A stretch of 64,000 bases of DNA from an uncultured Candidatus Saccharibacteria bacterium. GTDB lineage: Bacteria; Patescibacteriota; Minisyncoccia; Phycocordibacterales; PALSA-1337. Each line of letters opens with the position of its first letter. Position 1 is the stretch's first letter. The position numbers were made by a program, and so were the translations under genes. The stretch is from NCBI GenBank assembly GCA_964543075.1, contig CAZIVT010000002.1, positions 3,089 to 67,088 of the forward strand. Direction: 5' to 3'. The notes under the pieces were generated by a model, which was not told the DNA's origin, did not search any database, and saw nothing but the letters and a program-made list of their open reading frames with translations. Shown here piece by piece: positions 11,993-34,833 of this stretch.

Positions 11993-12061
11993 TCACTTTC
12001 GACCATCCCGCCTTTGGCGGGATAAACTCAGCCACGACCCGCCTTGGCGGGTCACGTCTCC
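11993..12061 (-). pseudogene. Decayed copy of the tRNA-Ser 5' portion (nt 1-26) interrupted by two mini-hairpin insertions
   Basis: The reverse complement reads GGAGACG[TGACCCGCCAAGGCGGGTCG]TGGCTGAG[TTTATCCCGCCAAAGGCGGGA]TGGTCGAAAG. With the brackets removed it equals the first 25-26 nt of the intact tRNA-Ser. Confidence 0.65.
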
Positions 12062-16881: not shown

Positions 16882-16961
16882 CGAGTAGTCAGTCCTTCGT
16901 TATACACACCTCACACTGGCTCTACTCTGGTATAATCATATAGAAACCATCTTACGGAGAT

Positions 16962-17615
16962 ATGGAGACCAAATTCCAGACATCATTCATACCGAAGAAA
17001 CCTCTCACGCTTGCCGGAAGCGGCTTGGGAGGGATCTCTGTCCCTCAGCAGCCCAAGCGACGAGGGACGAGCGTCTTCATGTCCATCGCGGTAATCATCT
17101 TCATCATCTCTCTCGGCGCGGTTGCAGGAGTGCACTTCTGGAAGTCTGTCCTCATCTCGGCTCAGGATAGCTACAAGGTCCAGTTGGCCCAGCGGGAAAA
17201 GCAGTTCAACCTGGCACTCATCGAAGAGCTCAAGCGTCAAGATGTCAAGATCAGCTTGGCTGACCAATTGCTCCGCAATCACCTCGCCATATCCAATATC
17301 TTCGGCATCATCGGCAGCTTCACCATTGAGAACGTCAGGTATCTGTCGCTCGACTTGTCCGCTCCCGCGAACAGCACAGAAGACGTCAAGATCTCGATGA
17401 AAGGGCAGGGATCCAACTTGAGCGCTATCGCGTTCCAGTCGAAAGTCCTCGCGACGCTCGAAGAATACGGCCTCCGTACGATCGTCAGGAATCCCATCCT
17501 GTCCGATCCAGTCCTGGACGCCTCGGGCGCGGTATCGTTTGGATTCACTGCTACGATCAACTCAGGAGCGCTCTCATACGAAAAGAGCGTGACTTCGAGC
17601 GAGTCCGCACCATAG
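16962..17615 (+). CDS. PilN-like bitopic pilus assembly protein
   Basis: Single TM (SVFMSIAVIIFIISLGAVAGV) followed by a coiled-coil and a periplasmic-type domain, directly after pilM. The GGAG 4 nt upstream is a rare SD-like motif in this window. Confidence 0.5.
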   Translation: METKFQTSFIPKKPLTLAGSGLGGISVPQQPKRRGTSVFMSIAVIIFIISLGAVAGVHFWKSVLISAQDSYKVQLAQREKQFNLALIEELKRQDVKISLADQLLRNHLAISNIFGIIGSFTIENVRYLSLDLSAPANSTEDVKISMKGQGSNLSAIAFQSKVLATLEEYGLRTIVRNPILSDPVLDASGAVSFGFTATINSGALSYEKSVTSSESAP

Positions 17616-17622
17616 CAATCCC

Positions 17623-18195
17623 ATGAACAAGAACATCACCGCACTCATCCTGATCATATTGGCCGCTGGCGTGTACTTCACGTATACGCAGGGCAAGCTC
17701 GATGAGCTCAAGTCCATCCGAGAGGTCAACAGCGAGTACTCATCAGCTATCGCCAATGCCGATCAGCTCATCAAGGATCGCGATCGTGTCCTCACTCAGT
17801 ACAATGACATCGCCGCTGATGATCGCGACAGGCTCGACAAGATGATCCCTGACACAGTCGACAACATACGTCTGATCATCGACCTCAATAGCGTCGCTTT
17901 GGATCATGGATTCTCTCTCCGCAACATCAAAGCCGCGGCATCGAGCGACAAGGAGGGAGCTCCGCCGCGCCAGGTACAGTCTGGTTCGCGCGACATAGTC
18001 ATAGCCAATCCTACCCTCGACACGGTGACGGTCACGTTCAGCGTGACCGCGCCATACCAGCAGTTCATCGAGTTCATGCGTTCTCTGGAAGCCAACTTGC
18101 GCGTGATGGATCTGACGCATCTGACCATAGCGGCCAACAGCTCAGGGACGTATGACTTTGGCGTCGAGTTCAAGACCTATTGGCTCCGCGAATAA
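17623..18195 (+). CDS. PilO-like bitopic pilus assembly protein
   Basis: N-terminal TM, coiled-coil (GKLDELKSIREVNSEY...) and a C-terminal alpha/beta domain. Position after pilM/pilN-like. Confidence 0.5.
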   Translation: MNKNITALILIILAAGVYFTYTQGKLDELKSIREVNSEYSSAIANADQLIKDRDRVLTQYNDIAADDRDRLDKMIPDTVDNIRLIIDLNSVALDHGFSLRNIKAAASSDKEGAPPRQVQSGSRDIVIANPTLDTVTVTFSVTAPYQQFIEFMRSLEANLRVMDLTHLTIAANSSGTYDFGVEFKTYWLRE

Positions 18196-18199
18196 CATC

Positions 18200-18532
18200 A
18201 TGAAGAACAAAACCTCATCAAAGAAGACCCTCGTGAGCTCGGTTATCATCATCGTCGCTGTGGCGATCGCGTATTTCTTCTATATGGGCAACAAGGCCCC
18301 CTCCGGACAGTCTCTACTCGAGACGCAGGTGACGCCTGAGGCCAACGCGGCCAGCTCGCGCATACTGGCTCTGCTCAATCAGATCAGATCGCTCAAGATA
18401 GACACGGAGATATTCGATGATCCGGTATATCAGACGCTCATCGATTATTCGGTCGCCATACCAGATGTCCCTGTCGGCAGGCTCAATCCGTTCGCTCCTA
18501 TACCAGGAGTGCCGATAGAAGGGTCAAATTGA
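18200..18532 (+). CDS. Small membrane-anchored protein of the pilus operon
   Basis: Start moved to MKNKTSSKKTLVSSVIIIVAVAIAYFF. No recognisable family. Confidence 0.4.
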   Translation: MKNKTSSKKTLVSSVIIIVAVAIAYFFYMGNKAPSGQSLLETQVTPEANAASSRILALLNQIRSLKIDTEIFDDPVYQTLIDYSVAIPDVPVGRLNPFAPIPGVPIEGSN

Positions 18533-18616
18533 ACGTTGAAAATTGAACGTTGAAGATTAATCCCTCGGGACTAATAGCCGGAATTTTCAATTTTCAATTT
18601 TCAATTTTCAATGCAA
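18527..18616. repeat. Intergenic word-repeat hairpin element H8
   Basis: Left arm is (AATTGAACGTTGAA)x2 and right arm is (ATTTTCA)x4. They are partly complementary (TTGAAAATTGAA versus TTCAATTTTCAA). Confidence 0.6.
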
Positions 18617-18617
18617 C

Positions 18618-20360
18618 ATGTCTGTCCTCGATATCCTACTCCAGAAGAATATCATCACCAAAGATGACGTCCGCGACATCCGCAAGGCGACATCCGCAGG
18701 CAGTCCGCTCGAGGACGCGCTGATCGCCCGTGGGGTCAAACCAGAAGACGTCATCGCGGCCCGCGGTGAATTCCTCAATATGCCCGTCCGTGCGGTAGCC
18801 GAGCAATCGGTCCCTTTTGAAGTGCTCGAGTACATCCCCGAGGAGTCGGCCGTCCACTACAAGTTCGCGCCGCTCGGTCTCGTCGACGGGACGCTCGAAG
18901 TCGGCATCGTCGATCCTGACAACATGGAGGCACGCGACGCGCTGACCTTCTTGGTGGCGAAAAAGAACATCCCATACAAGCTATTCCTCATCACTATCGA
19001 TGACTTCAAGAAAGTGATCGAGATGTACAAAGGCATCACCGGAGAGGTGTCCAAAGCGCTCTCGGAGCTCGAGAGCGAGCTCTCTGTCGATATCTCTGAT
19101 GGCATCAAGAAAGAGGACCTCGCGTCAGAGAAAGGTGGCGGCAAAGGCTCGAGCAAAGCCGAGGATGAGACGCTGATCATCGAGGATGCTCCTGTGGTCA
19201 AGATCGTCGCTACTATCGTCCGGTATGCCGTCGAAGGGGAGGCCTCAGACGTCCACATCGAGCATATGCGCGACAAGATCCGCGTGCGCTTCCGCGTCGA
19301 TGGTGTGCTCAATACGTCGCTCATCTTGCCGCCGCAGGTGCACTCGGCTGTCGTGGCTCGCATCAAAGTCCTCTCCAACATGCGCCTCGACGAGAAGCGC
19401 AAGCCTCAGGACGGACGCTTCTCGGCACGCATAGACGGACGTCGTGTCGATTTTCGTGTCTCTACATTCCCTTCGTATTATGGCGAGAAAGTCGAGATGC
19501 GTATCCTCGACCAAGCAAAGGGTATCCGTACTCTCGACGATATGGGCATGTCCGACAAGAATCTCTCTATGCTCCGTGAGGCGATCAACAAGCCATACGG
19601 CATGATCCTCATCACGGGCCCGACCGGTTCTGGAAAATCCACTACGCTCTACTCTATCCTCGGCGAGGTCGACCGTGAGAGCTACAACGTCCTATCGCTC
19701 GAAGATCCGGTCGAATATCAGATGGAAGGCGTCAGCCAATCGCAGGTTCGTCCGGAGATCGGATATGATTTCAGCTCTGGATTGCGCACGACGCTCCGTC
19801 AGGACCCCGATATCATCATGGTCGGTGAGATCCGCGACAAAGAGACCGCCCAGCTGGCGGTGCAGGCGGCTCTGACCGGTCACTTGGTCTTCTCGACTCT
19901 GCACACCAATGACGCCGCCGGCGTCATACCGCGTCTCATCGATATGGGTGTCGACCCGTATCTGATCGCGCCGACGCTCATCCTAGCAGTCGCGCAACGC
20001 CTCGTAGGACTCTTGCCAAAGGGCGGGGGAGAGCCCATGGCGGTCGATGGCAGTCTCAAAGCGATGATAGACAAGCAGTTCGCTGATCTTCCTGAACAAT
20101 ACAGGCAGGACATCCCATTCACAGATACTGTCAACAAGATCAAACCTACTCCCGAGTGTCCCAAAGGGACGAGGGGCCGTATGGCAGTCTTCGAGATGTT
20201 CACTATGGACAAGGATATCGAGAAAGTCATCCTGACCAATCCGACCGAGACAGAGATCTTCAAGATCGCGCGCGCAAAAGGCATGACTACCCTCAAGGAA
20301 GATGCCATCATCAAGGCGTTCGGCAAAGTGATACCGATAGAGGAGGTCAATAAGCTGTGA
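18618..20360 (+). CDS. pilB: Type IV pilus assembly ATPase PilB (GspE family)
   Basis: T2SSE N-domain, Walker A GPTGSGKST, Asp box, Walker B and His box (LVFSTLHTN). Confidence 0.92.
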   Translation: MSVLDILLQKNIITKDDVRDIRKATSAGSPLEDALIARGVKPEDVIAARGEFLNMPVRAVAEQSVPFEVLEYIPEESAVHYKFAPLGLVDGTLEVGIVDPDNMEARDALTFLVAKKNIPYKLFLITIDDFKKVIEMYKGITGEVSKALSELESELSVDISDGIKKEDLASEKGGGKGSSKAEDETLIIEDAPVVKIVATIVRYAVEGEASDVHIEHMRDKIRVRFRVDGVLNTSLILPPQVHSAVVARIKVLSNMRLDEKRKPQDGRFSARIDGRRVDFRVSTFPSYYGEKVEMRILDQAKGIRTLDDMGMSDKNLSMLREAINKPYGMILITGPTGSGKSTTLYSILGEVDRESYNVLSLEDPVEYQMEGVSQSQVRPEIGYDFSSGLRTTLRQDPDIIMVGEIRDKETAQLAVQAALTGHLVFSTLHTNDAAGVIPRLIDMGVDPYLIAPTLILAVAQRLVGLLPKGGGEPMAVDGSLKAMIDKQFADLPEQYRQDIPFTDTVNKIKPTPECPKGTRGRMAVFEMFTMDKDIEKVILTNPTETEIFKIARAKGMTTLKEDAIIKAFGKVIPIEEVNKL

Positions 20361-20373
20361 TATAATAATACCC

Positions 20374-20799
20374 ATGACTGAACAAACCGTAACCACTGCT
20401 TCCTCTGCGCCGGCTTCGGATGCAAAGAAAGTCCTCCTCGTCGATGACGACAAGTTCCTGCTCGATATGTATGCCATCAAGTTCAGCAAGGCTGGCTACG
20501 AAGTCAAGACGGCAGATGCCACGGACGCGGCCCTCAAGATGCTCCGCGACGGATATATCCCCGATGTGATGCTCGCTGACATCGTCATGCCTGGTCTCGA
20601 TGGTCTCGAGCTGGTCGCAAGTGTCAAGAAGGAGAACTTGATCCCCCAAGCCAAGGTCATCATGTTGACCAATCAGGGCTCTTCCGATGACGTCTCCCGA
20701 GCCAAGAAGCTCAACGTGGATGGCTATATCGTCAAAGCGACGACCATACCGTCGGAGGTGCTCGGTGAAGTGGAGAAGATTATCAGCAGTAAACCGTAA
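20374..20799 (+). CDS. Stand-alone response-regulator receiver protein
   Basis: VLLVDDD...DVMLADIVMPGLDG...VIMLTNQG...GYIVKA are CheY-like receiver residues. It lies between pilB and pilT. Confidence 0.85.
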   Translation: MTEQTVTTASSAPASDAKKVLLVDDDKFLLDMYAIKFSKAGYEVKTADATDAALKMLRDGYIPDVMLADIVMPGLDGLELVASVKKENLIPQAKVIMLTNQGSSDDVSRAKKLNVDGYIVKATTIPSEVLGEVEKIISSKP

Positions 20800-20810: not shown

Positions 20811-20880
20811 TGGTACCTAGTTAGTTCTCGCTACTAGATGCAGAAACTATGTAACTAGGTGCTATGCAACTAAGTAACTA
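20811..20880. repeat. Intergenic word-repeat hairpin element H2 (TCGCTACTAGAT..GCAGAAACTATGTAACT family)
   Basis: The core at 20828..20873 is about 90 percent identical by eye to 33190..33240. Arms GTACCTAGTTAG / CTAACTAGGTGC pair. Confidence 0.7.
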
Positions 20881-20886
20881 CCGTAT

Positions 20887-21945
20887 ATGGACTATAAACA
20901 AGAAATCCAAGAACTCGTCGACCTGGTCTTCAAGGAAGGCGCATCAGACCTGCATCTCTCGACTGGCCGCACGCCGATCATCCGCGTCTCCAGCAATCTG
21001 ATACCGCTCGTCAAGAAACCCACGCTATCTGACGCAGATATGAAGGGCTTCCTCAAGGTATTCCTCAACGAAGAGAGCATCGAGATCTTCCACAGAGAGA
21101 AAGATGTCGACTTTTCATACGGCCTAGACCAGGCGCGTTTCCGTGGCAATGCCTACTATCGTCAAGGCGCTATCTCCATCGCGCTTCGTCTCATCCCCAA
21201 GGCCATACGGACGCTTTCGGAGCTCAACCTGCCTCCTATCCTCGAGACATTCACGAGGAAGCCCCAGGGATTCTTCCTCGTGGTAGGACCGATCGGCCAA
21301 GGCAAGACCACTACGCTGGCTACGCTGGTCGAGATCATCAATCAGACGAGGTCAGAGCACATCATGACCATCGAGGATCCCATCGAGTATCTTTTTGATT
21401 CCAAGAAGTCCATCATCGATCAGCGCGAGGTGCGTTTCGATACGCCTGATTTCCAGACAGCTCTGGTGGCCATGTTCCGTCAGGATATCGATGTCTGTAT
21501 GGTGGGCGAGATGCGAGACAATACCACTGTCGCTACCGCCGTGACCGCCGCTGAGACAGGTCACCTGATCTTCTCGACACTGCATACCAACAATGCCGCC
21601 CAGACGATCAACCGCATCATCGACTCGTTCCCGCCGAGCCAGCAGGATCAGATCCGTATCCAGCTGGCAGGATCCCTGTCAGGCATATTCTCTCAGCGCC
21701 TCATCCCGCGCATCTCTGGCGGACAGATCCCGGCGTATGAGCTTCTCATCAACAACACCGCCGTCGCCAACCTGATTCGCGAGAAGCGCATCCATGAGAT
21801 CAATACCGTCATCGAGACGAGCTCACAGGAGGGGATGATCGACATGAACCGCTCGCTCGCCGAGCTCGCGCGATCCGGAGAGATCACCGTCGAGAACGCG
21901 TATCTCAATTCGCTCAATCCCAAGACGCTCGAACGCATGATGTGA
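20887..21945 (+). CDS. pilT: Twitching-motility retraction ATPase PilT
   Basis: Walker A GPIGQGKTT, and IFSTLHTNNAAQTINRIID is typical of PilT. 352 aa. Confidence 0.92.
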   Translation: MDYKQEIQELVDLVFKEGASDLHLSTGRTPIIRVSSNLIPLVKKPTLSDADMKGFLKVFLNEESIEIFHREKDVDFSYGLDQARFRGNAYYRQGAISIALRLIPKAIRTLSELNLPPILETFTRKPQGFFLVVGPIGQGKTTTLATLVEIINQTRSEHIMTIEDPIEYLFDSKKSIIDQREVRFDTPDFQTALVAMFRQDIDVCMVGEMRDNTTVATAVTAAETGHLIFSTLHTNNAAQTINRIIDSFPPSQQDQIRIQLAGSLSGIFSQRLIPRISGGQIPAYELLINNTAVANLIREKRIHEINTVIETSSQEGMIDMNRSLAELARSGEITVENAYLNSLNPKTLERMM

Positions 21946-21946
21946 T

Positions 21947-22037
21947 GTCAGTCAGATAGTCCATCGGTACATCGTCCAGTAGTCCTCGCTACCGGAATCA
22001 GCAGTAGAGATTATTCGACTGGGAACTATTGAACTGT
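21947..22037. repeat. Intergenic word-repeat hairpin element H3
   Basis: TCCTCGCTACCGGAATCAGCAGTAGAGATTATTCGACTGGGAACTATTGAAC is related to the H1 core (GCTACC..AATC.AG..GCAG..ATTCGACT..GAACTATT). Confidence 0.6.
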
Positions 22038-22065
22038 GATACATGCTCGCGCTATAATTACTCTC

Positions 22066-23277
22066 ATGCTTTTCAACTATGAAGCCATAGACGCGACCGG
22101 AGGCAAGAAGAACGGCTCTATAGATGCCATCAATCTAGACATCGCCATCGCTTCGCTCCAGCGACGCGGGCTCGTACTCACCAATATCAAAGAGGCCGAT
22201 GCCCCGAGCGGCATCCTCTCCGCCAATATCTCCTGGTTCGACCGTGTCTCAGTCAAGGACGTTGTCATCCTGTCCCGCCAGCTGGCGACTCTCTTTGAGG
22301 CGCAGGTGTCGGCGCTCCGCATCTTCCGCTTGCTCGGATCAGAGTCTGAAAATCACGTGCTAGCCAAGAAGCTCACCGAGATCGCCGATGATCTCCAAGC
22401 GGGAAGCTCGATATCCACAGCCCTCTCCAAACATCCCAAGGTATTCAGCGATTTCTATGTCAGCATGGTCAAAGCAGGTGAGGAATCAGGCAAGCTCGAC
22501 GACACCTTCCAGTATCTGGCCGACTATCTCGATCGCACCTATGAGCTCACGTCTCGCGTCCGCGGAGCGCTCATCTATCCGGCGTTCGTGGTCGTGACCT
22601 TCGTCGTGGTCATGATCCTCATGTTCACCATGGTCATCCCCAAGATCAGTGGCATCCTCGTCGATTCGGGCGTGGAGATACCGGTCTACACGCGCGTGAT
22701 CCTCGGACTCAGCAATTTCCTCGTAGAATACGGCTTCATCATCCTCGGCGTCGTCCTCATCGGCGGCTTTTTCCTCATCAGATTCATCCGCACGCCGGTG
22801 GGCAAGGCCGCGTTCGATCGATTCAAGCTCAATATCCCATATGTCAGCGGACTCTATCGCAAGCTCTACCTCTCGCGCATGGCCGACAACATGGCGACCA
22901 TGCTCGGTTCAGGTATCCCGATGGTCCGCGCGCTCGAGCTCACGTCCAATGTCATCAACAACAGCATCTACCAAGGCATCCTGACGGGGTCAGTGGAGAT
23001 GGTCAAGGGTGGTAAGACGCTCTCCGAGTCGCTCTCCGTCGATCCTGACGCTATCCCCGGTATCATGACGCAGATGATGAAGGTGGGTGAGGAGTCCGGC
23101 GAGCTCGGCAGTATCCTCAAGACCGTGGCCAAGTTCTACAGCCGCGAAGTGACCACAGCCGTCGACTCGCTCGTCTCGCTCATCGAGCCGCTCATGATCG
23201 TGCTCCTCGGCGGGGGAGTCGCCGTCCTTCTGGCGTCGGTGCTCATCCCGATCTACAACATCGCCAGCGCGCAGTAG
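22066..23277 (+). CDS. pilC: Type IV pilus platform protein PilC (GspF family)
   Basis: Start moved to MLFNYEAIDATGGKK (TATAAT-N7-ATG). Two GspF repeats and three TM segments. Confidence 0.9.
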   Translation: MLFNYEAIDATGGKKNGSIDAINLDIAIASLQRRGLVLTNIKEADAPSGILSANISWFDRVSVKDVVILSRQLATLFEAQVSALRIFRLLGSESENHVLAKKLTEIADDLQAGSSISTALSKHPKVFSDFYVSMVKAGEESGKLDDTFQYLADYLDRTYELTSRVRGALIYPAFVVVTFVVVMILMFTMVIPKISGILVDSGVEIPVYTRVILGLSNFLVEYGFIILGVVLIGGFFLIRFIRTPVGKAAFDRFKLNIPYVSGLYRKLYLSRMADNMATMLGSGIPMVRALELTSNVINNSIYQGILTGSVEMVKGGKTLSESLSVDPDAIPGIMTQMMKVGEESGELGSILKTVAKFYSREVTTAVDSLVSLIEPLMIVLLGGGVAVLLASVLIPIYNIASAQ

Positions 23278-23281
23278 CAGG

Positions 23282-23325
23282 AACACGCAGGGTAGACCTG
23301 CGTACGCAGGTCTACCCTGCGTGTT
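23282..23325. repeat. REP element copy 1 (44-bp perfect palindrome)
   Basis: AACACGCAGGGTAGACCTGCGTACGCAGGTCTACCCTGCGTGTT, 4 nt after the pilC stop. Confidence 0.9.
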
Positions 23326-23447
23326 ATCCACACCCCTATATTGTGCCGGTTTTGCGGATGGTATAATTATCCCTAACAAACCTTAATTTGAGAAAGGGAT
23401 GTTGTTACATATAAATTATCAATAGTTATCACGTAAATTTCATAATC

Positions 23448-23975
23448 ATGAAAAAGTTTACACAGAAAGGCTTCACCCTCATCGAACTCCTCGTGGTGAT
23501 CGCCATTATCGGTATCTTGTCGTCTGTTGTGTTGGTCTCCCTCAATAGTGCTAGGAGCAAGGGTGGGGATGCAGCTATACAAGGGAATTTGAATGCAATT
23601 AGAACTCAAGCTGAACTCTGGGCAAATAATCAGTCGACACCAACATATGCTACAACGGCTTTTGCGGCGGCGGCATGTCCAGGTACTACACAAACAGGAA
23701 ATATTCTTAATGATTCAACCATAATAAGCGCGATTAATGGTGCAAGTACTCAGGCAGGGGGTAGTGATAACAGTGACACCCGTTGCGCGGTCCGTTCAAA
23801 TGGATGGGCAATAGCCTCTCAACTTAAATCAGGTGGTACTGCAGGAGACTCAACACCAGATGCATGGTGTGTGGATAGCAGCGGAATCGCGAAACCCTAC
23901 ACGTATACATCTGGACAGACGATTGCGAATACGATCACTGATAACTCTTCTGGAAATACAGCATCCTGTAATTAG
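23448..23975 (+). CDS. pilA: Type IV major pilin
   Basis: Prepilin leader MKKFTQKG followed by FTLIELLVVIAIIGIL, and C-terminal Cys residues. Confidence 0.85.
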   Translation: MKKFTQKGFTLIELLVVIAIIGILSSVVLVSLNSARSKGGDAAIQGNLNAIRTQAELWANNQSTPTYATTAFAAAACPGTTQTGNILNDSTIISAINGASTQAGGSDNSDTRCAVRSNGWAIASQLKSGGTAGDSTPDAWCVDSSGIAKPYTYTSGQTIANTITDNSSGNTASCN

Positions 23976-24003
23976 TTGAGATTGTTCAATTTATCGAAAC
24001 TTC

Positions 24004-24030
24004 CCACCCCGCCCCAAGCGGGGTGGTTTC
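24004..24030 (+). terminator. Hairpin terminator after pilA
   Basis: CCACCCCGC-CCCAA-GCGGGGTGG followed by TTT. Confidence 0.55.
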
Positions 24031-24044
24031 GCGTTATGCATGAT

Positions 24045-24082
24045 CCGCAGGGTAGACCTGCGTACGCAGGTCTACCCTGCGG
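24045..24082. repeat. REP element copy 2 (38-bp perfect palindrome)
   Basis: CCGCAGGGTAGACCTGCGTACGCAGGTCTACCCTGCGG. It overlaps the last codons and the stop of the RAYT ORF. Confidence 0.9.
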
Positions 24083-24659
24083 GGACTGCGAGGATTCGAT
24101 AGGTGATGATGCTTGTTTGACTTCGGGACTCCCCCAAGTAGTCCTTGAAACTCGAGTACTCATATGATTTTGAATACTCTATAGCCTCGCCCAAATACTC
24201 CGTTTTGGCAGTTTTCGTCATGTCTGGTTGGTCTATTCCATATGGATTGAGATGAACGTATTGGACCAGATATCGCAGATACTCATCGGAGTCTACATGT
24301 TTTGATCTATACTGGCCTTGGAATATAGTGCCCGAATGGTCGTATTTCTTGTTGTAGTACATGGCATATGAGGTGCAGAGCCTCTGCATGAACTTTTCCA
24401 CCCCTCTTTCTGTCGTCTCGCGCATTCCGATATGAAAATGATTGGGCATGAGGCAGTAGCAGAATATATCCGTGAGCGTATCACGTTCAAACCGAAACAT
24501 ATCTGTCGGCTTTATTGTACGCAGGTCTACCCTGCGGGTGTGGTTATTCATGACGTACAGTAGTTGCAAAAACCTCATATAATCGGATGTGTCATGGAAA
24601 ATAGGCGCTTTGTGAGCACCTCGGTTATATACATGGTAGTGTTCTCCGATGATATGCAT
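24072..24659 (-). CDS. REP-associated tyrosine transposase (RAYT, IS200/IS605 Y1 TnpA-like)
   Basis: YHVYNRG, HUH motif CLMPNHFHI, and catalytic-Tyr region YLRYLVQYVHLNP. It is flanked by REP palindromes. Confidence 0.85.
   Translation of the reverse strand: MHIIGEHYHVYNRGAHKAPIFHDTSDYMRFLQLLYVMNNHTRRVDLRTIKPTDMFRFERDTLTDIFCYCLMPNHFHIGMRETTERGVEKFMQRLCTSYAMYYNKKYDHSGTIFQGQYRSKHVDSDEYLRYLVQYVHLNPYGIDQPDMTKTAKTEYLGEAIEYSKSYEYSSFKDYLGESRSQTSIITYRILAVPAG
24518..24537. repeat. Half REP inside the RAYT coding sequence
   Basis: TACGCAGGTCTACCCTGCGG, translated on the minus strand as TRRVDLRT. Confidence 0.7.
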
Positions 24660-24668
24660 GATCTGCAG

Positions 24669-24690
24669 TCCGCAGGGTAGACCTGCGTAC
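24669..24690. repeat. Half REP upstream of the RAYT start
   Basis: TCCGCAGGGTAGACCTGCGTAC is the left half only, 10 nt upstream of the RAYT ATG. Confidence 0.75.
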
Positions 24691-24801
24691 AGTACGATAT
24701 CAAAAGCAGATAAAATCCAGATAAAATAAGTATAAAGTTTTACTAAAGTTTTCCCCCTATATCTGATGATTGCTTGTCATACGTCGTGGTATAATTCATT
24801 T

Positions 24802-25347
24802 ATGAATAAAAATTCCCTCCGCAGGGTAGACCTGCGTACGCAGGTCTACCCTGCGGAAAAAGCTTTTACTATCATCGAGCTTCTCGTCGTGATCGCCATC
24901 ATCGCGCTCTTGACCGGTATCATCATGACCAACCTGACTTCCGCGAAGTCTCGTGCCAGGGATGCCAAGAGGATATCGGATATGGGGCAGATCGCTCTGG
25001 CGCTCGAGCTTTTCTATGATAGGTGTGGATCGTATCCTATAGCAGAGGGGTATCTTAGTCTTTCAGAAGACGCCAATGGATATTGCCCTAGTGGTGTGAC
25101 ATTTGAAGATTTTATGTCTGTTATTCCTTCCAATCCAGCTCCATATGATCTACCATATTACTACTATAATGCCCCTAGTGATGAGGTTGATTTCAAGGCA
25201 AAGAAATACCTGCTACGTGTCACCTTAGAAGGGAGCAACTCGGTATTGGATGATGATGTCGATAGTATACCAATAGCGGATTGGCCTGATATAGCCAGTA
25301 ACTTTTGTTCTGATGCCTCGAACGCCTACTGCATAATCGGAAATTAG
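24802..25347 (+). CDS. Type IV pilin-like protein with a REP-encoded leader segment
   Basis: MNKNSLRRVDLRTQVYPAEKA then FTIIELLVVIAIIALL. TATAAT-N6-ATG at 24790-24804. There is no alternative start between the REP and the FTIIE motif. Confidence 0.8.
   Translation: MNKNSLRRVDLRTQVYPAEKAFTIIELLVVIAIIALLTGIIMTNLTSAKSRARDAKRISDMGQIALALELFYDRCGSYPIAEGYLSLSEDANGYCPSGVTFEDFMSVIPSNPAPYDLPYYYYNAPSDEVDFKAKKYLLRVTLEGSNSVLDDDVDSIPIADWPDIASNFCSDASNAYCIIGN
24818..24857. repeat. REP element copy 3 (40-bp perfect palindrome) inside a prepilin leader
   Basis: TCCGCAGGGTAGACCTGCGTACGCAGGTCTACCCTGCGGA. Confidence 0.9.
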
Positions 25348-25348
25348 C

Positions 25349-26155
25349 TTGACTACTGTAACTTATCTCCTCCTCCCGTTCATATTCGGTGCCATAGTCG
25401 GCAGTTTTCTCAATGTCGTTGCCTTACGATTCGGGACCGGAAAAGGGATCGGAGGACGTTCGGGTTGTATGAATTGCGGCAAGAAGCTCGGTTGGCGCGA
25501 GCTGATACCGATCGTGAGCTTCTTTTTTCAGAAGGGTCGATGCAGGGAGTGCGGGAGCAAGATATCGTGGCAGTATCCGCTGGTAGAATTCATGACGGGC
25601 GCTATGTTCGCCTTGATCTTCTTGACCTTCCCGCCGTTCGATGTCGTGTCATCGGTGATGACGGTACTCCATATCATTGCGGCTTGTCTGCTGCTGGTTA
25701 TCTGTGTCTATGACATCAAGCACAAGATCATACCCGACGTGTTCTCATATGCTTTTTCTGGTATCGCACTCATCTCTCTCTTCGTCGGCGGATGGTCCTG
25801 GTGGCATGTTCCGAGCTGGTGGCAGATCATCGCCGGACCGCTCGCCGCTGTGCCGTTTGCGCTGATCTGGCTCGTCTCTCGTGGCAGATGGATGGGCCTC
25901 GGCGACGCCAAGCTGATGCTCGGCATCGGCTGGTTCCTCGGGATATCAGGGGCTGTCAATGCCATCATCTTGGCTTTCTGGATAGCCGCCGCAGTCAGCA
26001 TCATATGGATGCTCGTCACCTATAGGCGCTTCAAACGGGGAATGGAGATACCGTTCGGTCCCTACCTCATCGTGGGTATGTACGCCGTGCTCTTATTCGG
26101 GATCCAGGCGATAGATACGGGGATGCTCATGGAGCTTTTTACTTGGTATAATTGA
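25349..26155 (+). CDS. pilD: Prepilin peptidase / N-methyltransferase (A24 family)
   Basis: TTG start. LNVVALRF, Cys-pair zinc motif CMNCGKKL...CRECGSKI, and DVFSY / GLGDAKLM aspartyl motifs. Confidence 0.9.
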   Translation: MTTVTYLLLPFIFGAIVGSFLNVVALRFGTGKGIGGRSGCMNCGKKLGWRELIPIVSFFFQKGRCRECGSKISWQYPLVEFMTGAMFALIFLTFPPFDVVSSVMTVLHIIAACLLLVICVYDIKHKIIPDVFSYAFSGIALISLFVGGWSWWHVPSWWQIIAGPLAAVPFALIWLVSRGRWMGLGDAKLMLGIGWFLGISGAVNAIILAFWIAAAVSIIWMLVTYRRFKRGMEIPFGPYLIVGMYAVLLFGIQAIDTGMLMELFTWYN

Positions 26156-26159
26156 CCAT

Positions 26160-26765
26160 ATGCATAGTCCAAAAGAACAGCATGCTTTGAGATCAGTACA
26201 GTGTCCTCGACATGAACAGAAGAGTCGCGCGGGATTCACACTGGTCGAGCTCATAGTATCCGTGGCGATATTTGCCGTGATGACGGCCTTGGTAGTGGCG
26301 AAATATGGCAACTTCAATAACAACATACTGTTCACCAATCTCGCGTATGACGTCGCTGGCATCATCAGGACCGCCCAGTCATATGGACTGAGCGTGAGGA
26401 GCGCGGACGATGTGGGCAATTTCCAATCCGCCTACGGTGTGCATATATCTACCGACCAGCCCAAGACCATCATCTTCTTCGCTGATACGGATGAGGACGG
26501 CATCTATGGCGGCTCGAGCGAGGACATCAGCTTTTATGCGCTCAAGCAAGGGGCATATATCGTCGGATATTGCTTTGTGCCCTCATGTCAGGGATATGCC
26601 AATGGAGACCTCAATATCACGTTCAAGAGGCCTGATCCGGATGCGAGGTTGTATGATAGCGAGTTCCTCATCGGGAATTATGCCGAGATAGTCATCCAGT
26701 CACCCCAAGGAGATACGCGCGCGATAGTCGTCCGTGGCAACGGACAGATATCGATCAAAGACTAG
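26160..26765 (+). CDS. Minor pilin / pseudopilin (FimT/GspH-like)
   Basis: Long leader ending SRAG, then FTLVELIVSVAIFAVM. TATAAT-N7-ATG. Confidence 0.75.
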   Translation: MHSPKEQHALRSVQCPRHEQKSRAGFTLVELIVSVAIFAVMTALVVAKYGNFNNNILFTNLAYDVAGIIRTAQSYGLSVRSADDVGNFQSAYGVHISTDQPKTIIFFADTDEDGIYGGSSEDISFYALKQGAYIVGYCFVPSCQGYANGDLNITFKRPDPDARLYDSEFLIGNYAEIVIQSPQGDTRAIVVRGNGQISIKD

Positions 26766-26830
26766 CGAAGTGACCGAGAGGCCGCTGTGATGTTAGGCGT
26801 TCGGGATAGTTACTTGGTATAATCATGACG

Positions 26831-27484
26831 ATGAATCATCCCCAGAGATCGAACACGATAGGCGCGCAAGGATGTCGCGAGCGCGGCTTCACACTCGTCG
26901 AGATGATCGTGGCGCTCGCCATCTTCTCCATCGTCTCCGTGGTGGCGCTCGGCGCGTTGGTCAAGATCGTCTCCGCCAACAAAAAGGCCCAGAGCCTCCA
27001 GTCGTCGATCAGCAACTTGAGCTTCGCGCTCGATGCCATGTCTCGCGAGCTGCGTACCGGCAAGAATTATCATTGCGAGAGCAATGATGGTAGTCCGAAC
27101 TATACAGGAGAAGACATAGACTTATTGGGATGTCCGTCTGGATTGAGCGATCGAGAGACTGCCACGTTGCTCGGGTTCGCTTCGGCCAAGCGCATACCGG
27201 ATAGTAGTGGCACCTGCGCCGCTGCCTATGCGTATCGGTTCCGTCCCGAGGGGAGCGTGTATGTCCTGGAGAAAGCTGTTCAGACAGACTGCGATGAAGG
27301 CATCAGCTCTACCGACTTCGAGAATATCATCGACGAGAACGTCGAGATCACTGGGTATTTTCTCTCCGTCCAAGAAGACGAGTATCCTCGAGTGACCGTA
27401 CGCATCTCCGGGTATTCTGGCGTGAGGGAGAGGGAGAAGACCTACTTTGACGTGCAGACGACGATATCGCAACGCGTCCCATAA
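26831..27484 (+). CDS. Minor pilin / pseudopilin (PilW/GspJ-like)
   Basis: ...CRERG then FTLVEMIVALAIFSIV. Start set at the second ATG (26831), which is 7 nt after TATAAT. ATG 26825 is the alternative. Confidence 0.75.
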   Translation: MNHPQRSNTIGAQGCRERGFTLVEMIVALAIFSIVSVVALGALVKIVSANKKAQSLQSSISNLSFALDAMSRELRTGKNYHCESNDGSPNYTGEDIDLLGCPSGLSDRETATLLGFASAKRIPDSSGTCAAAYAYRFRPEGSVYVLEKAVQTDCDEGISSTDFENIIDENVEITGYFLSVQEDEYPRVTVRISGYSGVREREKTYFDVQTTISQRVP

Positions 27485-27488
27485 TCTC

Positions 27489-28067
27489 ATGACTATCTTC
27501 AACCACCAATCTTCAACCGTCGATTCCCGCAGGGTAGACCTGCGTACGCAGGTCTACCCTGCGGGGGCGAGTTCCGGCTTTACCATCATCGAGACGTTGG
27601 TGGCGATAACTGTGCTGATGATCGCTATCGCCGGGCCGCTGGTCGTAGCGACCAAGGGTCTCGCCGCGGCGCAGACTTCCAAGAATCAGATGATCGCCAC
27701 CTATCTCGCGCAAGAGACCATGGAGATCGCCAAGAATACCAAAGACAATAACATCGCCTCAGGTGCGGCATGGGATGAGCTGCTCAACGAATGCTCGGAG
27801 AGCTCGCCGTGCGATATGAGCCCGTTCGACGATTATATATTATGCCCGGAATCCCAGTACCAAGGCCAGGGATGCAGGATCTATTTCACTCCGGAGTTCG
27901 GGTATGTCAATTCTGCCACCGGAGATTCGACCCCGTTCTACCGCAAGTTCTATATCGAGCCGATCGGCAGCAGTGAGATATCCGTCAACGTCATGGTCAA
28001 TTGGAGGGAAGGGGCTCTTCCATATCAGGTTCATATTACCAATCAAATGCTCAATACTACCCGATGA
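27489..28067 (+). CDS. Minor pilin / pseudopilin (PilV/GspI-like) with a REP-encoded leader segment
   Basis: MTIFNHQSSTVDSRRVDLRTQVYPAGASSG then FTIIETLVAITVLMIAI. Start moved to the first ATG after the upstream stop. Confidence 0.75.
   Translation: MTIFNHQSSTVDSRRVDLRTQVYPAGASSGFTIIETLVAITVLMIAIAGPLVVATKGLAAAQTSKNQMIATYLAQETMEIAKNTKDNNIASGAAWDELLNECSESSPCDMSPFDDYILCPESQYQGQGCRIYFTPEFGYVNSATGDSTPFYRKFYIEPIGSSEISVNVMVNWREGALPYQVHITNQMLNTTR
27526..27565. repeat. REP element copy 4 (40-bp perfect palindrome) inside a prepilin leader
   Basis: CCCGCAGGGTAGACCTGCGTACGCAGGTCTACCCTGCGGG. Confidence 0.9.
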
Positions 28068-28558
28068 TGAAACGAGGCTACACACTCCTGTTCGCGGTGA
28101 TCACAGCGGCCTTGGTGCTCGGTGTGGCGGTGTTCATCATCTCGGTCAGCAAGAAGCAGTATGATCTCTCGATCTCTGCCCGCGATTCTATCTACGCGCT
28201 CTACGCCGCCGACAGTGGCATCGAATGCGCGGCCTTCGCTCTCGAGGGCGGCCAGCTCGAGCTCGACGGGACGCCGATCGTAGAATGCAATAATGAGTTT
28301 GCTTCAGGCGCATTTCAGAATATAGGCAATCCCGATGACACGATCTGGAACAGCGATACCGTCGATGAGGCGTCCGATCTGTACATTCCGTTCGAAGATG
28401 GCCGATGCGCTCTCATCACGGTCACGTACGGTCTCAACAAGGACGACGTCCCGGTCGTTCGTATCGTCTCTCGAGGTTATAACCAATGCGATAGCTCCGG
28501 CCCTAGGCCGAGCGCCCGCACTGTCGAGCGCGCGTTCCGTCTGACCAAGACTATTTGA
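28064..28558 (+). CDS. PilX-like minor pilus protein
   Basis: Start MMKRGYTLLFAVITAALVLGVAVFII overlaps the upstream stop (ATGATGA). Its N-terminal hydrophobic segment lacks the G/F cleavage motif, as in PilX-N proteins. Confidence 0.5.
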   Translation: MMKRGYTLLFAVITAALVLGVAVFIISVSKKQYDLSISARDSIYALYAADSGIECAAFALEGGQLELDGTPIVECNNEFASGAFQNIGNPDDTIWNSDTVDEASDLYIPFEDGRCALITVTYGLNKDDVPVVRIVSRGYNQCDSSGPRPSARTVERAFRLTKTI

Positions 28559-28563
28559 CGCAG

Positions 28564-28590
28564 GACGCAGGTCTACCCTGCGTACGCAGG
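28564..28590. repeat. Partial/permuted REP
   Basis: ACGCAGGTCTACCCTGCGTACGCAGGT is the right REP half followed by the start of another right half, 6 nt after the pilX-like stop. Confidence 0.7.
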
Positions 28591-28605
28591 TTCTGCTATC
28601 CTTAG

Positions 28606-30879
<2,274 letters not shown>

Positions 30880-31282
30880 CAAGAAAGTTGTCACTTTTTT
30901 GATGTCGTGGTAGTAGAGCATGGGGAGCTCCCTGTCGCCGTATTCATCGCAACAAAAAAAGATACGGTTTGCTCCTGCCCCACCATCCCGCCACCCAAAA
31001 ATCCTCACCTTGCCGTCGTTCGGTCATCCATCGCAACAAAAAAGATACGACCGGCTCCGCCCCGCCACTCTCGGCCGCCTCCCCACAGTGATCTCCATTC
31101 CCGCCGAGATTTTCATGTACATTTGATGAGATATGTGTTTTGATATCTCAGCCTTTTAAGCCACACCCCGCCACGGTGGGGTGAATGCCACAAGTCAAAA
31201 GTGAAAATAGCGACTAAGATTTTTGACAGAATTATCGCCGACTTATTTGTTGCTATGCTTTTCGCATGGTACACTCACAACC

Positions 31283-31609: not shown

Positions 31610-33163
31610 ATGCCAATAGACTTACAAAATCTGACGATCGTGAAAGCGCATGAAGCGCTCAAGAAGGGCGAATTCACTTCGGTCGAATTGACGCAGGCGT
31701 ATCTGGATCAAATTGCCGCACGCAACGGCGACATCTACGCATATCTGGAGGTCTTCGAAGACGCGATAGATCAGGCCAAGGAGGCGGATAAGAAAATACA
31801 AGGATTGATCTCGCCAACGGCGGGGTTGACCCCGCCTGTGGCGGGGTTGAAAGAAGGAAAGATTGAAAGATTGAAAGATTCGGATACAGCCGCGGATTTC
31901 CCGATGTTGCTGGGCATCCCGTGCGCGATCAAAGATAATATCCTCATCAAGGGCCACATCGCCAGTTCAGCGTCCAAGATATTGGAGCGATATCATGCGA
32001 CCTACGATGCCACGGTCATCCGCAAGCTCAAGGAGGCCGGCGCGGTCTTCCTCGGACGCACCAATATGGACGAATTCGCTATGGGCGGCTCGACCGAGAA
32101 CTCCGCCTATGGTCCGACTAGGAATCCGCACGATCTCGAACGCGTTCCAGGCGGGACCTCGGGAGGATCGGCAGCTGTCGTAGCGGCGGACATGGCATTG
32201 TTTGCGCTCGGCTCGGATACAGGAGGATCGATCAGACAACCTTCGAGCTTTTGTGGTGTGGTAGGGATCAAACCGACATACGGCAATGTATCACGATATG
32301 GTCTGATGGCGGCTGTTTCGTCATTTGACCAGATTGGTCCGATAGTCAAGACGGTCGAAGATGCCGAAATAGTATTTGATGTGATCAAAGGGAAGGATGA
32401 GAAGGATGGAACAAGTCAAAATTCTCCCGCCTCCGCTCCACTCCGCGAAGCTTCGGCGGGCAAGCAATTCCCAATTCCCAATTCCCAATTCCAACACAGG
32501 CAAGATCGATTGCGTATAGGTATTCCGAAACACTTCTTGAAAGGAGATGGCATCGATCCGGCGGTCGTGAAGGCGTTCGAATCTTCGGTGGAAGCGCTTA
32601 AAGCTAAGGGATATGAGGTGATCGATATCGAGTTACCGAATATCTCGTATTCATTACCTGCATATTATATTCTGAACTTTGCGGAAATATCGTCCAACAT
32701 GGCGCGCTATGATGGTATGAGATTCGGTCTCCATGTAGATGGCGCGGACGGCATCGGCGACTATTTCGAGACGCGCAAGGCGGGCTTAGGCAAGGAGGTC
32801 ATCCGCCGCATCTTGCTCGGCACCTATGTACTCTCGTCAGGATACTACGACGCCTATTACAATCGCGCCAATGCCGTGCGCCGGATGATCACCGAGGACT
32901 TCACCAAAGCATTTCAGTCAGTCGACGTCATCGCCACGCCGACCACGCCATCTCCTGCGTTCAAACTCGGCGAGAAGACGAGCGATCCGGTGGCGATGTA
33001 TCTGGAAGATATATTCACCGTGACGGCAAACCTGACGGGCATGCCGGCCATCTCCGTGCCGATGAAGACCGACGGATTGCCCGTAGGCATCCAGTTCACC
33101 GCGCCACAGGGAGGGGAGAGCGCTCTATTTGAGATCGGAAAAGAGACGGAGATAGTCGAGTAG
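31610..33163 (+). CDS. gatA: Glutamyl/aspartyl-tRNA amidotransferase subunit A with two extra in-frame segments
   Basis: Amidase signature GGSSGGSAA-like GGTSGGSAAVVAA, GSDTGGSIRQP and KDNI. Confidence 0.95.
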   Translation: MPIDLQNLTIVKAHEALKKGEFTSVELTQAYLDQIAARNGDIYAYLEVFEDAIDQAKEADKKIQGLISPTAGLTPPVAGLKEGKIERLKDSDTAADFPMLLGIPCAIKDNILIKGHIASSASKILERYHATYDATVIRKLKEAGAVFLGRTNMDEFAMGGSTENSAYGPTRNPHDLERVPGGTSGGSAAVVAADMALFALGSDTGGSIRQPSSFCGVVGIKPTYGNVSRYGLMAAVSSFDQIGPIVKTVEDAEIVFDVIKGKDEKDGTSQNSPASAPLREASAGKQFPIPNSQFQHRQDRLRIGIPKHFLKGDGIDPAVVKAFESSVEALKAKGYEVIDIELPNISYSLPAYYILNFAEISSNMARYDGMRFGLHVDGADGIGDYFETRKAGLGKEVIRRILLGTYVLSSGYYDAYYNRANAVRRMITEDFTKAFQSVDVIATPTTPSPAFKLGEKTSDPVAMYLEDIFTVTANLTGMPAISVPMKTDGLPVGIQFTAPQGGESALFEIGKETEIVE

Positions 33164-33250
33164 TACTTAGCTACTTGGGTACATAGTTTTCGCTACTAGA
33201 TCTAGATGCAGAAACTATGTAACTGGGTACTATGTAACTATGTAACTATT
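33164..33250. repeat. Intergenic word-repeat hairpin element H4 (same family as H2)
   Basis: TCGCTACTAGATCTAGATGCAGAAACTATGTAACTGGGTACTATGTAACTA. It differs from H2 mainly by a CTAGAT duplication. Confidence 0.7.
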
Positions 33251-33267
33251 TTATATAATATACCCAT

Positions 33268-34729: not shown

Positions 34730-34833
34730 CAAGAGAAATTCAAAAATTAAATTTATCCCGCCTTGGCGGGACAGGCAAAAATCAAAAGTGAAAGCGCAAC
34801 GACAGATATTTTCACTATCAGTATACCCTGACT

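Follow-up and report, generated by a model that had tools for sequence, protein, structure and literature searches.

What ties a transposase gene to the short palindromes around it when both lie in the middle of a type IV pilus operon? The question is raised by a window of 64,000 nt from contig CAZIVT010000002.1 (coordinates below are window positions unless another locus is named). A first-pass annotation had recognized here a Y1/HUH transposase of the RAYT type (REP-associated tyrosine transposase, REP being a repetitive extragenic palindrome), with cognate palindromes, in the pilus operon of a genome resembling those of the Candidate Phyla Radiation (CPR). We reread the region 23000-29000 and compared it with loci that carry homologues of the transposase, hereafter Y1. 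The results make it probable that the locus is a lineage-specific REP/RAYT module (REPtron), consisting of a class-2 Y1/HUH enzyme, vertically inherited in the Paceibacterota pilus operon, and a cognate 17-nt hairpin. The earlier proposal thus stands, because gene and hairpin covary across lineages, because the enzyme carries a Y---NP motif, and because its fold matches the structure 4ER8.

A 15-mer, GCAGGGTAGACCTGC, has 11 exact matches in the window, where 0.10 were expected, and 0 of 100 shuffles reached this number. The complete unit is a 17-mer, CGCAGGGTAGACCTGCG, with a 6-bp stem (CGCAGG/CCTGCG) and a 5-nt loop (GTAGA). When the whole 64 kb was scanned for this unit with up to 3 mismatches allowed, 11 sites were found, every one of them exact and all confined to 23286-28582 (about 0.1-0.2 expected by chance), and the remaining 58.7 kb held no match at this tolerance. 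Seven palindromic sites within 5.3 kb had been described before, and this description was confirmed, as were the coordinates then given for the palindromes and the gene, the wider spans including palindromic flanks.

The 11 units are arranged as four doublets and three single or partial copies (Table 1). Each doublet is a perfect palindrome of 36 bp laid out as unit-TA-inverted unit; DNA folding gave -20.2 kcal/mol for the doublet and -7.9 kcal/mol for a 19-nt unit, and shuffled controls were far less stable. The first-pass annotation needed amendment as to where the copies lie. They had been placed at gene boundaries, which holds for four of the seven sites, but those at 24820 and 27528 lie in pilin leaders and that at 24520 is native Y1 coding sequence. 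Of the copies called half or permuted, 24520 and 24671 are single units, and 28565-28591 holds a full unit with partial direct copies. The three dispersed copies of the window each lie within 4 kb of the Y1 gene; the chance that all three are local is about 0.002 under uniform placement (hand calculation, (8/64)^3). No target duplication was seen at the four doublet sites.

Table 1. Positions in the window of the Y1 gene, its hairpin units and doublets, and the genes of the surrounding operon (ORF, open reading frame).
Feature	Position	Strand	Context
Y1/HUH tyrosine transposase, RAYT-like	24072-24659	-	intact ORF, 195 aa
Dispersed doublet	23286-23321		pilC-pilA intergenic, 8 nt past pilC stop; core of a 44-nt perfect palindrome
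3' REPtron doublet	24046-24081		over last Y1 codons; 70 nt past pilA stop
Unit within Y1 coding sequence	24520-24536	-	codons 42-47, encodes RRVDLR
Proximal 5' unit	24671-24687	-	11 nt upstream of Y1 ATG
Distal 5' REPtron doublet	24820-24855		in frame within second-pilin leader peptide
Dispersed doublet	27528-27563		in frame within leader peptide of pilV-like minor pilin
Full unit with partial direct (not inverted) copies on either side	28565-28591		between pilX-like stop and ligA start
pilB	18618-20360
Response regulator	20374-20799
pilT	20887-21945
pilC	22036-23277
pilA	23448-23975
Second pilin	24802-25347	+
Prepilin peptidase	25349-26155
Four minor-pilin-like genes	up to 28558		include pilV-like gene, 27489-28067 (+)
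ligA	28609-30879

Several other roles for the palindromes were considered and rejected. A clustered regularly interspaced short palindromic repeat array was ruled out because regular spacers are absent. As to termination, the doublets have no T-run on the sense strand, and only the 24820 doublet scores as a terminator, on the minus strand only. A translational lock, formed by long-range pairing of the upstream unit with the internal unit, was set aside since folding favoured local hairpins. A search of the window against Rfam at gathering thresholds returned tRNAs only, so that the palindromes have no RNA family match.

We turn to the enzyme. Y1_Tnp was the only Pfam domain found in the 195-aa protein, at 32.6 bits against a cut-off of 23, and an NCBIfam search at E up to 0.01 returned REP_Tyr_transpos and no other family, with no match to an IS200-type model. 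The HUH motif is NHFH (H74, H76) and the tyrosine motif is YVHLNP at residues 134-139 (Y134); further motifs are IFQG (FQ) and the tail YEYSSFKDYLG ('SS'). Six residues, H74, H76, Y134, H136, N138 and P139, are invariant across 77 homologues. Y---NP has been described as the signature of class 2 (TnpA-REP-like) and Y---Q as that of IS200 (Quentin et al. 2018, PMC6006769). Because YVHLNP fits Y---NP, the protein was assigned to class 2.

The structural comparison points the same way. In a Foldseek search with an AlphaFold2 model of the protein (predicted local distance difference test score 91.9), the best solved structure was 4ER8, E. coli TnpA-REP bound to REP (E 1.2e-6, 189 columns), and the match takes in the C-terminal part of the protein. 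The transposases of IS608 and ISDra2 ranked after it with about 137 aligned columns; 2XM3 and 2A6M were among the structures matched. A profile search of Protein Data Bank sequences gave marginal matches only (E about 0.1), 4ER8 among them. We found 532 homologues, mostly of about 190 aa with 50-73% identity and about 95% query coverage. Those that bear organism names belong to Paceibacterota or Patescibacteria, and some are labelled 'REP element-mobilizing transposase RayT' by the Joint Genome Institute (JGI). The first-pass annotation had named kinship with IS200 TnpA, or a palindrome unrelated to the gene, as outcomes that would speak against a RAYT. Neither was observed: the protein does not resemble those of IS200, and the palindrome both accompanies the gene and recurs at sites apart from it.

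The unit inside the Y1 coding sequence deserves separate mention. RRVDLR.IKP is conserved among the closest homologues in the alignment, and in the AlphaFold2 model the RRVDLR site falls in the loop that joins helix A to strand 2, a loop whose length is constant. The ideas that this copy is an insertion, or that Y1 is a disrupted pseudogene, were rejected, since the ORF is complete, 95% of it is covered by homologues, and RRVDLR belongs to the native sequence. Unit and gene are also joined at the 3' end, where the TAG stop of Y1 is supplied by doublet 24046-24081 from the GTAG of its unit. The proximal 5' unit is inverted relative to the internal unit and to the stop-codon unit (24065-24081) and lies probably within the 5' untranslated region of Y1. 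Upstream of the gene stands a promoter-like block, GGATTTTATCTGCTTTTGATATCG (24695-24717, minus strand), with an extended -10-like TGATAT. Its sequence GATTTTATC occurs nowhere else in the window, and an alignment of 11 upstream regions gave the consensus TTTATC..ATTTTATCAGGATTTTATCTC..TGATAT, suggesting that the conserved block is a putative promoter of Y1.

Does the hairpin follow the gene in other genomes? We compared the DNA around eleven homologues, which represent ten distinct lineages; the P0016 and P0056 loci were compared as gene maps only. In most of the ten lineages, a lineage-specific hairpin lies just upstream of the ATG and over the stop of the Y1 homologue, and its sequence differs among lineages but always agrees within one locus. 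The identical 17-mer was found in L002/L007 (GCA_041671485.1; 37% GC vs 53% in the window; Y1 71% identical), where one copy precedes the ATG by 8 nt, another falls at codon 42, and a doublet covers the stop. L006 carries GCGTAGG-GTAGA-CCTACGC upstream of the ATG, within the gene at codon 41 and again at the stop, and L003 a unit with the loop TGCGA at codon 41 (RRCDLR) and at the stop. The unit of L008, CCGAGG-TGGAA-CCTCGG, is present at codons 46 and 58, at the stop and upstream, and as doublets in ligA and in the pilC-pilA spacer, the latter like the window. CACCGG-TCCGA-CCGGTG in L010 and CCGGAGG-TTACA-CCTCCGG in L011 occupy the gene flanks and nearby sites. The gene flanks of L009 bear GTCAAGAT-GAC-ATCTTGAC, which has a different geometry, and those of L012 and L013 bear inverted repeats at the same gene-relative positions.

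The places that the hairpins take relative to the gene are conserved as well. A unit lies within the Y1 coding sequence in five lineages, at codon ~41 in the subclade of the window, and each matches the flanking unit of its own genome. The ATG-proximal unit, 6-25 nt upstream, is also present in L002, L006, L010 and L011 and recurs in degenerate form in L009 and L013; the stop-codon unit or doublet of the homologues falls at codons 188-194, and a distal unit or doublet stands about 100-160 nt upstream of the Y1 ATG in other lineages. The order of distal unit or doublet, promoter-like block, ATG-proximal unit and stop unit is thus conserved relative to the gene, and the window doublet at 24820 is the counterpart of the distal element, here inside the leader of the second pilin. 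The inverted flanking layout of the window recurs in L002, L006, L010 and L011, and in variant or degenerate form in L008, L009, L012 and L013.

When seven unit types were aligned, all 42 of 42 stem cells paired, with 3 of the 6 pairs changed on both sides, and the covariation score was reached by 0 of 500 shuffles, a result that has to be read with the caveat that the aligned units were chosen as palindromes. The internal unit of L006 differs from that of the window by two synonymous and mutually compensatory changes (CGC..CTG to CGT..CTA), which the flanking L006 units share. The 17-mer is 100% identical between the window and L002 despite 53% vs 37% GC and a Y1 identity of 71%, which may be read as selection on the unit. 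The system provides a compact model of co-evolution: in the lineages sampled, each enzyme has its own hairpin at fixed positions, and in-gene synonymous compensation preserves both protein and stem.

The doublets that do not flank the gene behave differently. L002 has extra doublets, with spacers of 6-11 nt, at gatC/ligA, between a minor pilin gene and pilD, and upstream of pilM, so that the sites differ between the window and L002, which has no doublet in the pilC-pilA spacer. Elsewhere, doublets adjoin recJ/HIT or nusA/PPase, or lie within ligA. The differing sites, and orthologous pilin leaders that are free of inserts (below), point to mobility or turnover of the doublets. A scan of JGI metagenomes for exact doublets with a spacer of 0-30 nt returned one contig only, L007, which is identical to L002 over an overlap of 11,688 bp. 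Another contig scan, made with a 19-mer that includes three TA-type spacer bases and therefore misses the L002 units, whose spacers differ, identified L001 (JBAZBL010000007.1, from the same metagenome-assembled genome as L002). At L001 7455-7640, a direct tandem of two units follows a response-regulator gene and is itself followed by a close copy of the promoter-like block, with no Y1 ORF; this site may represent an isolated 5' flank or what is left of a second REPtron.

Two variant palindromes of L002 were also noted. At the distal upstream position of Y1 (L002 9868-9906) stands a second palindrome type, CCGAGGGTAGGCCTC/GAGGCCTACCCTCGG, which joins the stem of the L008 unit to a GTAG-type loop and may be an intermediate between unit types. 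In the doublet at L002 17449-17488, symmetric outer changes (CACAGG...CCTGTG) keep the long hairpin and break the unit hairpin, which hints that the doublet rather than the unit is copied or selected.

The position of Y1 in the operon, which the first-pass annotation had missed, is conserved across diverged genomes. The genes around Y1 form a type IV pilus operon (Table 1), and in five lineages Y1 has pilA on one side and the second pilin on the other, namely in those of the window, L002/L007, the P0016 locus, L008 and the P0056 locus, with its orientation reversed in the P0056 locus. The Y1 proteins of the five syntenic lineages are 60-71% identical to that of the window. The identity is 71% to L002 and 66% to L008, and falls within the range of neighbouring genes in the same comparisons (pilD 64-65%, ligA 54-65%, pilC 77-82%). 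These values are consistent with vertical inheritance of Y1 under purifying selection, as has been described for RAYTs (PMC5581495). Outside this arrangement, Y1 adjoins pilB in L010 and lies one gene away from a LamG-type pilin in L009, and in L013 and L014 it precedes a pilA-like gene by 27 nt, the context being otherwise unrelated, its orientation relative to the pilins being flipped in L013 also. The Y1 genes of L003, L006, L011 and L012 have no pilus neighbour. Thus, pilus adjacency was observed in 8 of the 12 sampled lineages and in at least 4 arrangements, and looks non-random, in a sample that is small and whose lineages are not independent.

The operon is not uniform in its affinities. 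The window is nearer to L008 in pilB, pilT, pilC, the response regulator gene and ligA, and nearer or identical to L002 in Y1, the second pilin and the unit, which suggests either that recombination took place inside the operon or that specificity was switched in the lineage of L008. At 38-51% identity, pilA and the second pilin are far more diverged than the flanking genes. In L008, a (TAGAC)15 microsatellite (10712-10788) abuts the pilA stop, between pilA and the 3' doublet of Y1. In L009, a reverse transcriptase gene (RVT_1) and a bAvd-like gene (16960-18872), a pair resembling a diversity-generating retroelement, lie about 6 kb from Y1, near LamG-type pilin-like genes. In the window, a 55-nt repeat, CTAGATGCAGAAACTATGTAACTA..., is present at 20834-20888, just upstream of pilT, and at 33202-33256, and short AT-rich tandem motifs (TTTTCAA, CAATTCC, AAACTCA) occur at 18528-18612, 32465-32492 and 55157-55180; motifs and repeat may be shared regulatory sequences.

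Two of the doublets are read as protein. That at 24820-24855 begins 18 nt after the ATG of the second pilin and that at 27528-27563 begins 39 nt after the ATG of the pilV-like gene. They share the reading frame, and each encodes RRVDLRTQVYPA, 12 extra aa in the leader, ahead of the A/G↓FTIIE cleavage motif (A↓FTIIE in the second pilin). Between each doublet and the cleavage site the reading frame offers no further start codon; therefore, the doublets are translated whenever those pilins are made. The orthologous leaders in L002 and L008 are short and without insert (MKKSG↓F, MKKYSPKVRG↓F, MKQISNRKNNVRG↓F), the last being that of the pilV-like orthologue in L002. A doublet of 36 nt that is open in 2 of 3 reading frames can be tolerated in a leader for these two reasons, and the prepilin leader peptides appear to tolerate the 12-aa palindrome-encoded insert, which is cleaved off by the prepilin peptidase and need not persist in the mature pilin. 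As RNA, the doublet would fold into a perfect hairpin of 18-20 bp near the start codons of the two pilin mRNAs, and in the mRNA of the second pilin an 18-bp hairpin begins 16 nt after the A of AUG.

We then compared the system with those already described. The REPtrons of E. coli and Pseudomonas (Quentin subclasses 2.2 and 2.5; Bertels groups 2 and 3) have, as here, a Y---NP Y1/HUH gene flanked by inverted copies of its own hairpin, and single copy number, inverted doublets (REPINs), co-evolution of gene and hairpin, and vertical inheritance are common to both. They differ in having tens to hundreds of dispersed copies, whereas here a handful lies within about 4-7 kb of the gene in the regions searched. 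The hairpin here is short, its 6-bp stem closing a 5-nt loop that contains GTAG, the Y1 protein is very distant in sequence, and the host has a reduced CPR genome.

A second comparison is with subclass 2.4 (Bertels group 4; Cyanobacteria and Bacteroidetes). In-frame REPs inside tnpA-REP and 'double-foot' GTAG...CTAC REPs have been described as unique to it (Quentin et al. 2018, PMC6006769). Our system shares the in-frame REPs within the transposase gene, its inner doublet part, GTAG-ACCTGCGTACGCAGGT-CTAC, matches the double-foot form, and the protein lengths are similar (about 194 aa vs 195 aa). However, the motifs of subclass 2.4 are WQ and YIxNNP, against FQ and YVHLNP here, and its in-gene REP lies at a different position; here the unit precedes HUH, in the loop from helix A to strand 2, fills a loop of constant length and adds no residues, unlike that of subclass 2.4.

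By its motifs, read without a tree, Y1 is most like subclass 2.1 (Bertels group 1, which includes the TIRYTs), with which it shares NH[YF]H, FQ, Y[IV]HLNP and the 'SS' tail. The proteins of this subclass are longer (median 238 aa) and have a distal helix-turn-helix-like C-terminal domain, which Pfam did not find in the 195-aa Y1, and they are reported without REPs or with terminal inverted repeats, in contrast to the clear hairpin repeats here. The IS200/IS605 family (IS200, IS608, ISDra2) has in common with Y1 the HUH/Y1 fold, subterminal hairpins and a hairpin before the start codon; it differs by Y---Q and, in subclass 1.1, a core of only about 150 aa, against Y---NP and 195 aa with a C-terminal extension here, where the loci searched hold no multicopy identical elements, tnpB is missing, and the syntenic position is fixed. 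In-frame insertion into coding genes is shared with intragenic REPs and Rickettsia palindromic elements, although the inserts here lie in leader peptides that are removed by prepilin peptidase. Intragenic REPs are often found at N-termini and in replication and repair genes (PMC3733652). Judged by its sequence, the system behaves like a REPtron and has most of the structural features expected of REP/RAYT.

A number of observations nevertheless weigh against a REPtron. The copies are few and all local in the sequence searched (three extra unit sites in the window; three in L002 and one on L001). Classical REPs and REPINs, by contrast, are scattered in tens to hundreds of copies, genome-wide dispersal being a defining property of REPs. 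The motifs NHFH, FQ and YVHLNP fit subclass 2.1, the one reported to lack REPs. REPs have a conserved GT[AG]G tetranucleotide at the 5' foot of the hairpin; here GTAG stands in the loop of the unit, and at the foot only if the doublet is read as double-foot. Besides the window, GTAG is present in the units of L002 and L006 and in the repeats of L013, and L008, L010 and L011 have TGGA, TCCG and TGTA instead. The match to the NCBIfam model NF047646 (REP_Tyr_transpos) reached 35.9 bits, under the equivalog cut-off of 80, and this low score indicates that Y1 represents a distant clade and no equivalog of the characterised proteobacterial RAYTs. Homologues of about 70% identity stand in unrelated contexts in L003 and L006; therefore, the gene moved at some point. 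Finally, the upstream unit runs in the same direction as the outer arm of the 3' doublet, a geometry compatible with IS608-like movement of the whole gene.

These last two points bear on an alternative that we consider unlikely, in which Y1 is an autonomous minimal insertion sequence of the IS200/IS605 type, the doublets are derivatives resembling miniature inverted-repeat transposable elements, and the whole is a selfish insertion rather than a domesticated RAYT. Hairpins lying directly at the ATG and stop of a compact element of about 650 bp would suit it, as would the contexts of L011 and L012, which like those of L003 and L006 are unrelated to the pilus operon, and the L001 site with its units and promoter-like block but no gene; Bertels group 1 is, in addition, the most IS-like of RAYT groups 1-5 (PMC5581495). 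A selfish element is hard to reconcile, though, with the same operon position in five lineages and with a Y1 divergence like that of neighbouring housekeeping genes in L002 and L008. Nor was a second Y1 copy found in the 64-kb window or in any 20-kb locus, giving one copy per 20-64 kb locus; tnpB is absent at the locus; and the motif, the lack of an IS200-type NCBIfam match and the best fold, which includes the C-terminal part, all point to TnpA-REP.

The recurrence of pilus neighbours raises a different possibility. It is improbable, in our view, that the Y1 enzyme and its doublets make up a domesticated single-strand-DNA recombination system dedicated to pilin genes in Paceibacterota, the doublets bracketing the major pilin gene and marking the 5' ends of other pilins, with cassettes excised, inverted or swapped, or expression switched; if true, episymbiotic CPR bacteria would have a new means of varying their surface. 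We regard as very doubtful its particular form, in which Y1 is a domesticated recombinase for pilin variation and the doublets are recombination sites at which pilin cassettes are excised, inverted and exchanged, like attC/IntI or Piv-type switches. The adjacency in 8 of 12 lineages and the flipped orientations of Y1 in the P0056 and L013 loci would agree with it, and doublets 23286-23321 and 24046-24081 bracket pilA (23448-23975), as do doublets of a different unit in L008. But L002 has no bracket upstream of pilA, four lineages lack a pilus neighbour altogether, and doublets also stand at unrelated genes; no alternative pilin cassettes, silent copies or inversion variants were seen. The strong divergence of pilA and the second pilin, and the grouping of Y1 and second pilin with L002 and of housekeeping genes with L008, would likewise agree with exchange of this kind, but fast divergence is expected of pilins anyway, and the adjacency itself comes from the small and phylogenetically non-independent sample noted above.

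The remaining alternative, that the palindromes are host regulatory elements (attenuators, mRNA-stabilising hairpins or operators) kept for pilin expression with Y1 incidental, is highly improbable: sites in the pilC-pilA and pilX-ligA spacers and at the 5' ends of two pilin genes, the perfect RNA hairpins close to start codons, the terminator-like doublet on the minus strand and the known effects of REPs elsewhere on mRNA stability and termination (PMC3733652) would fit, but the hairpin sequence follows Y1 (ATG, stop, and coding sequence in five lineages) and not the pilus genes, the link between hairpin and Y1 holds outside pilus operons (L006, L011), doublets also lie by recJ/HIT and nusA/PPase and within ligA, their positions in the operon differ between the window and L002, and no T-run follows them on the sense strand.

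How would the REPtron work? We infer catalysis and mobility of the Y1 system from sequence and from analogy with IS200/IS605 elements and TnpA-REP biochemistry. By this analogy, the enzyme would bind the folded unit on single-stranded DNA and would cut and rejoin beside the hairpin by means of Y134 and the HUH-bound metal, so that doublets could be excised and reinserted without target duplication. The enzyme may prefer sites near its own gene; such a preference in cis would explain why every extra copy is within 4 kb of the gene. In IS200, a hairpin just upstream of the start codon limits translation, and by the same token the ATG-proximal hairpin and the promoter-like block would probably keep expression of the transposase low.

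To our knowledge, nearly all REP/RAYT systems characterised so far come from Proteobacteria, Cyanobacteria and Bacteroidetes. Full-text literature searches found no paper that describes one in CPR bacteria, and Quentin et al. do not mention these phyla (PMC6006769). The kind of system is therefore already known, and what is unusual is its CPR host, its local layout at low copy number, the in-gene hairpin with synonymous compensation and the recurrent link to pilins; it would be a clear REP/RAYT case in a minimal, gene-dense genome, the nearest described subclass being reported without REPs. Pili of CPR bacteria are thought to be central to host attachment and DNA uptake, and the recurrent adjacency raises the question of whether such enzymes contribute to the turnover of pilus genes in these bacteria.

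The window contains a second palindromic repeat family, TTTATCCCGCCTTGGCGGGACAGGCAAA with the core CCCGCCTTGGCGGG, at 12038-12051, 29392-29463 and 34736-34779 and in degenerate form at 31167-31180 (at a tolerance of up to 2 mismatches, 10 matches were counted where 0.43 were expected). Its copies are spread more widely than those of the Y1 unit, no transposase adjoins them in the window, and two of them lie in frame within ligA. The surface loop of LigA after FVYDIDEI holds a different insert in each of the window (29380-29470), L008 and L002: in the window it is this second family, and in L008 (7790-7828) it is the cognate Y1 doublet SPRFHLGTEVEPR, so that the loop looks like a permissive insertion hotspot. 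Further along the window, a stretch of about 1.1 kb is duplicated in tandem at 44584-46820 (period 1137-1140 bp, 75-91% identity); the two segments appear to be paralogous coding sequence.

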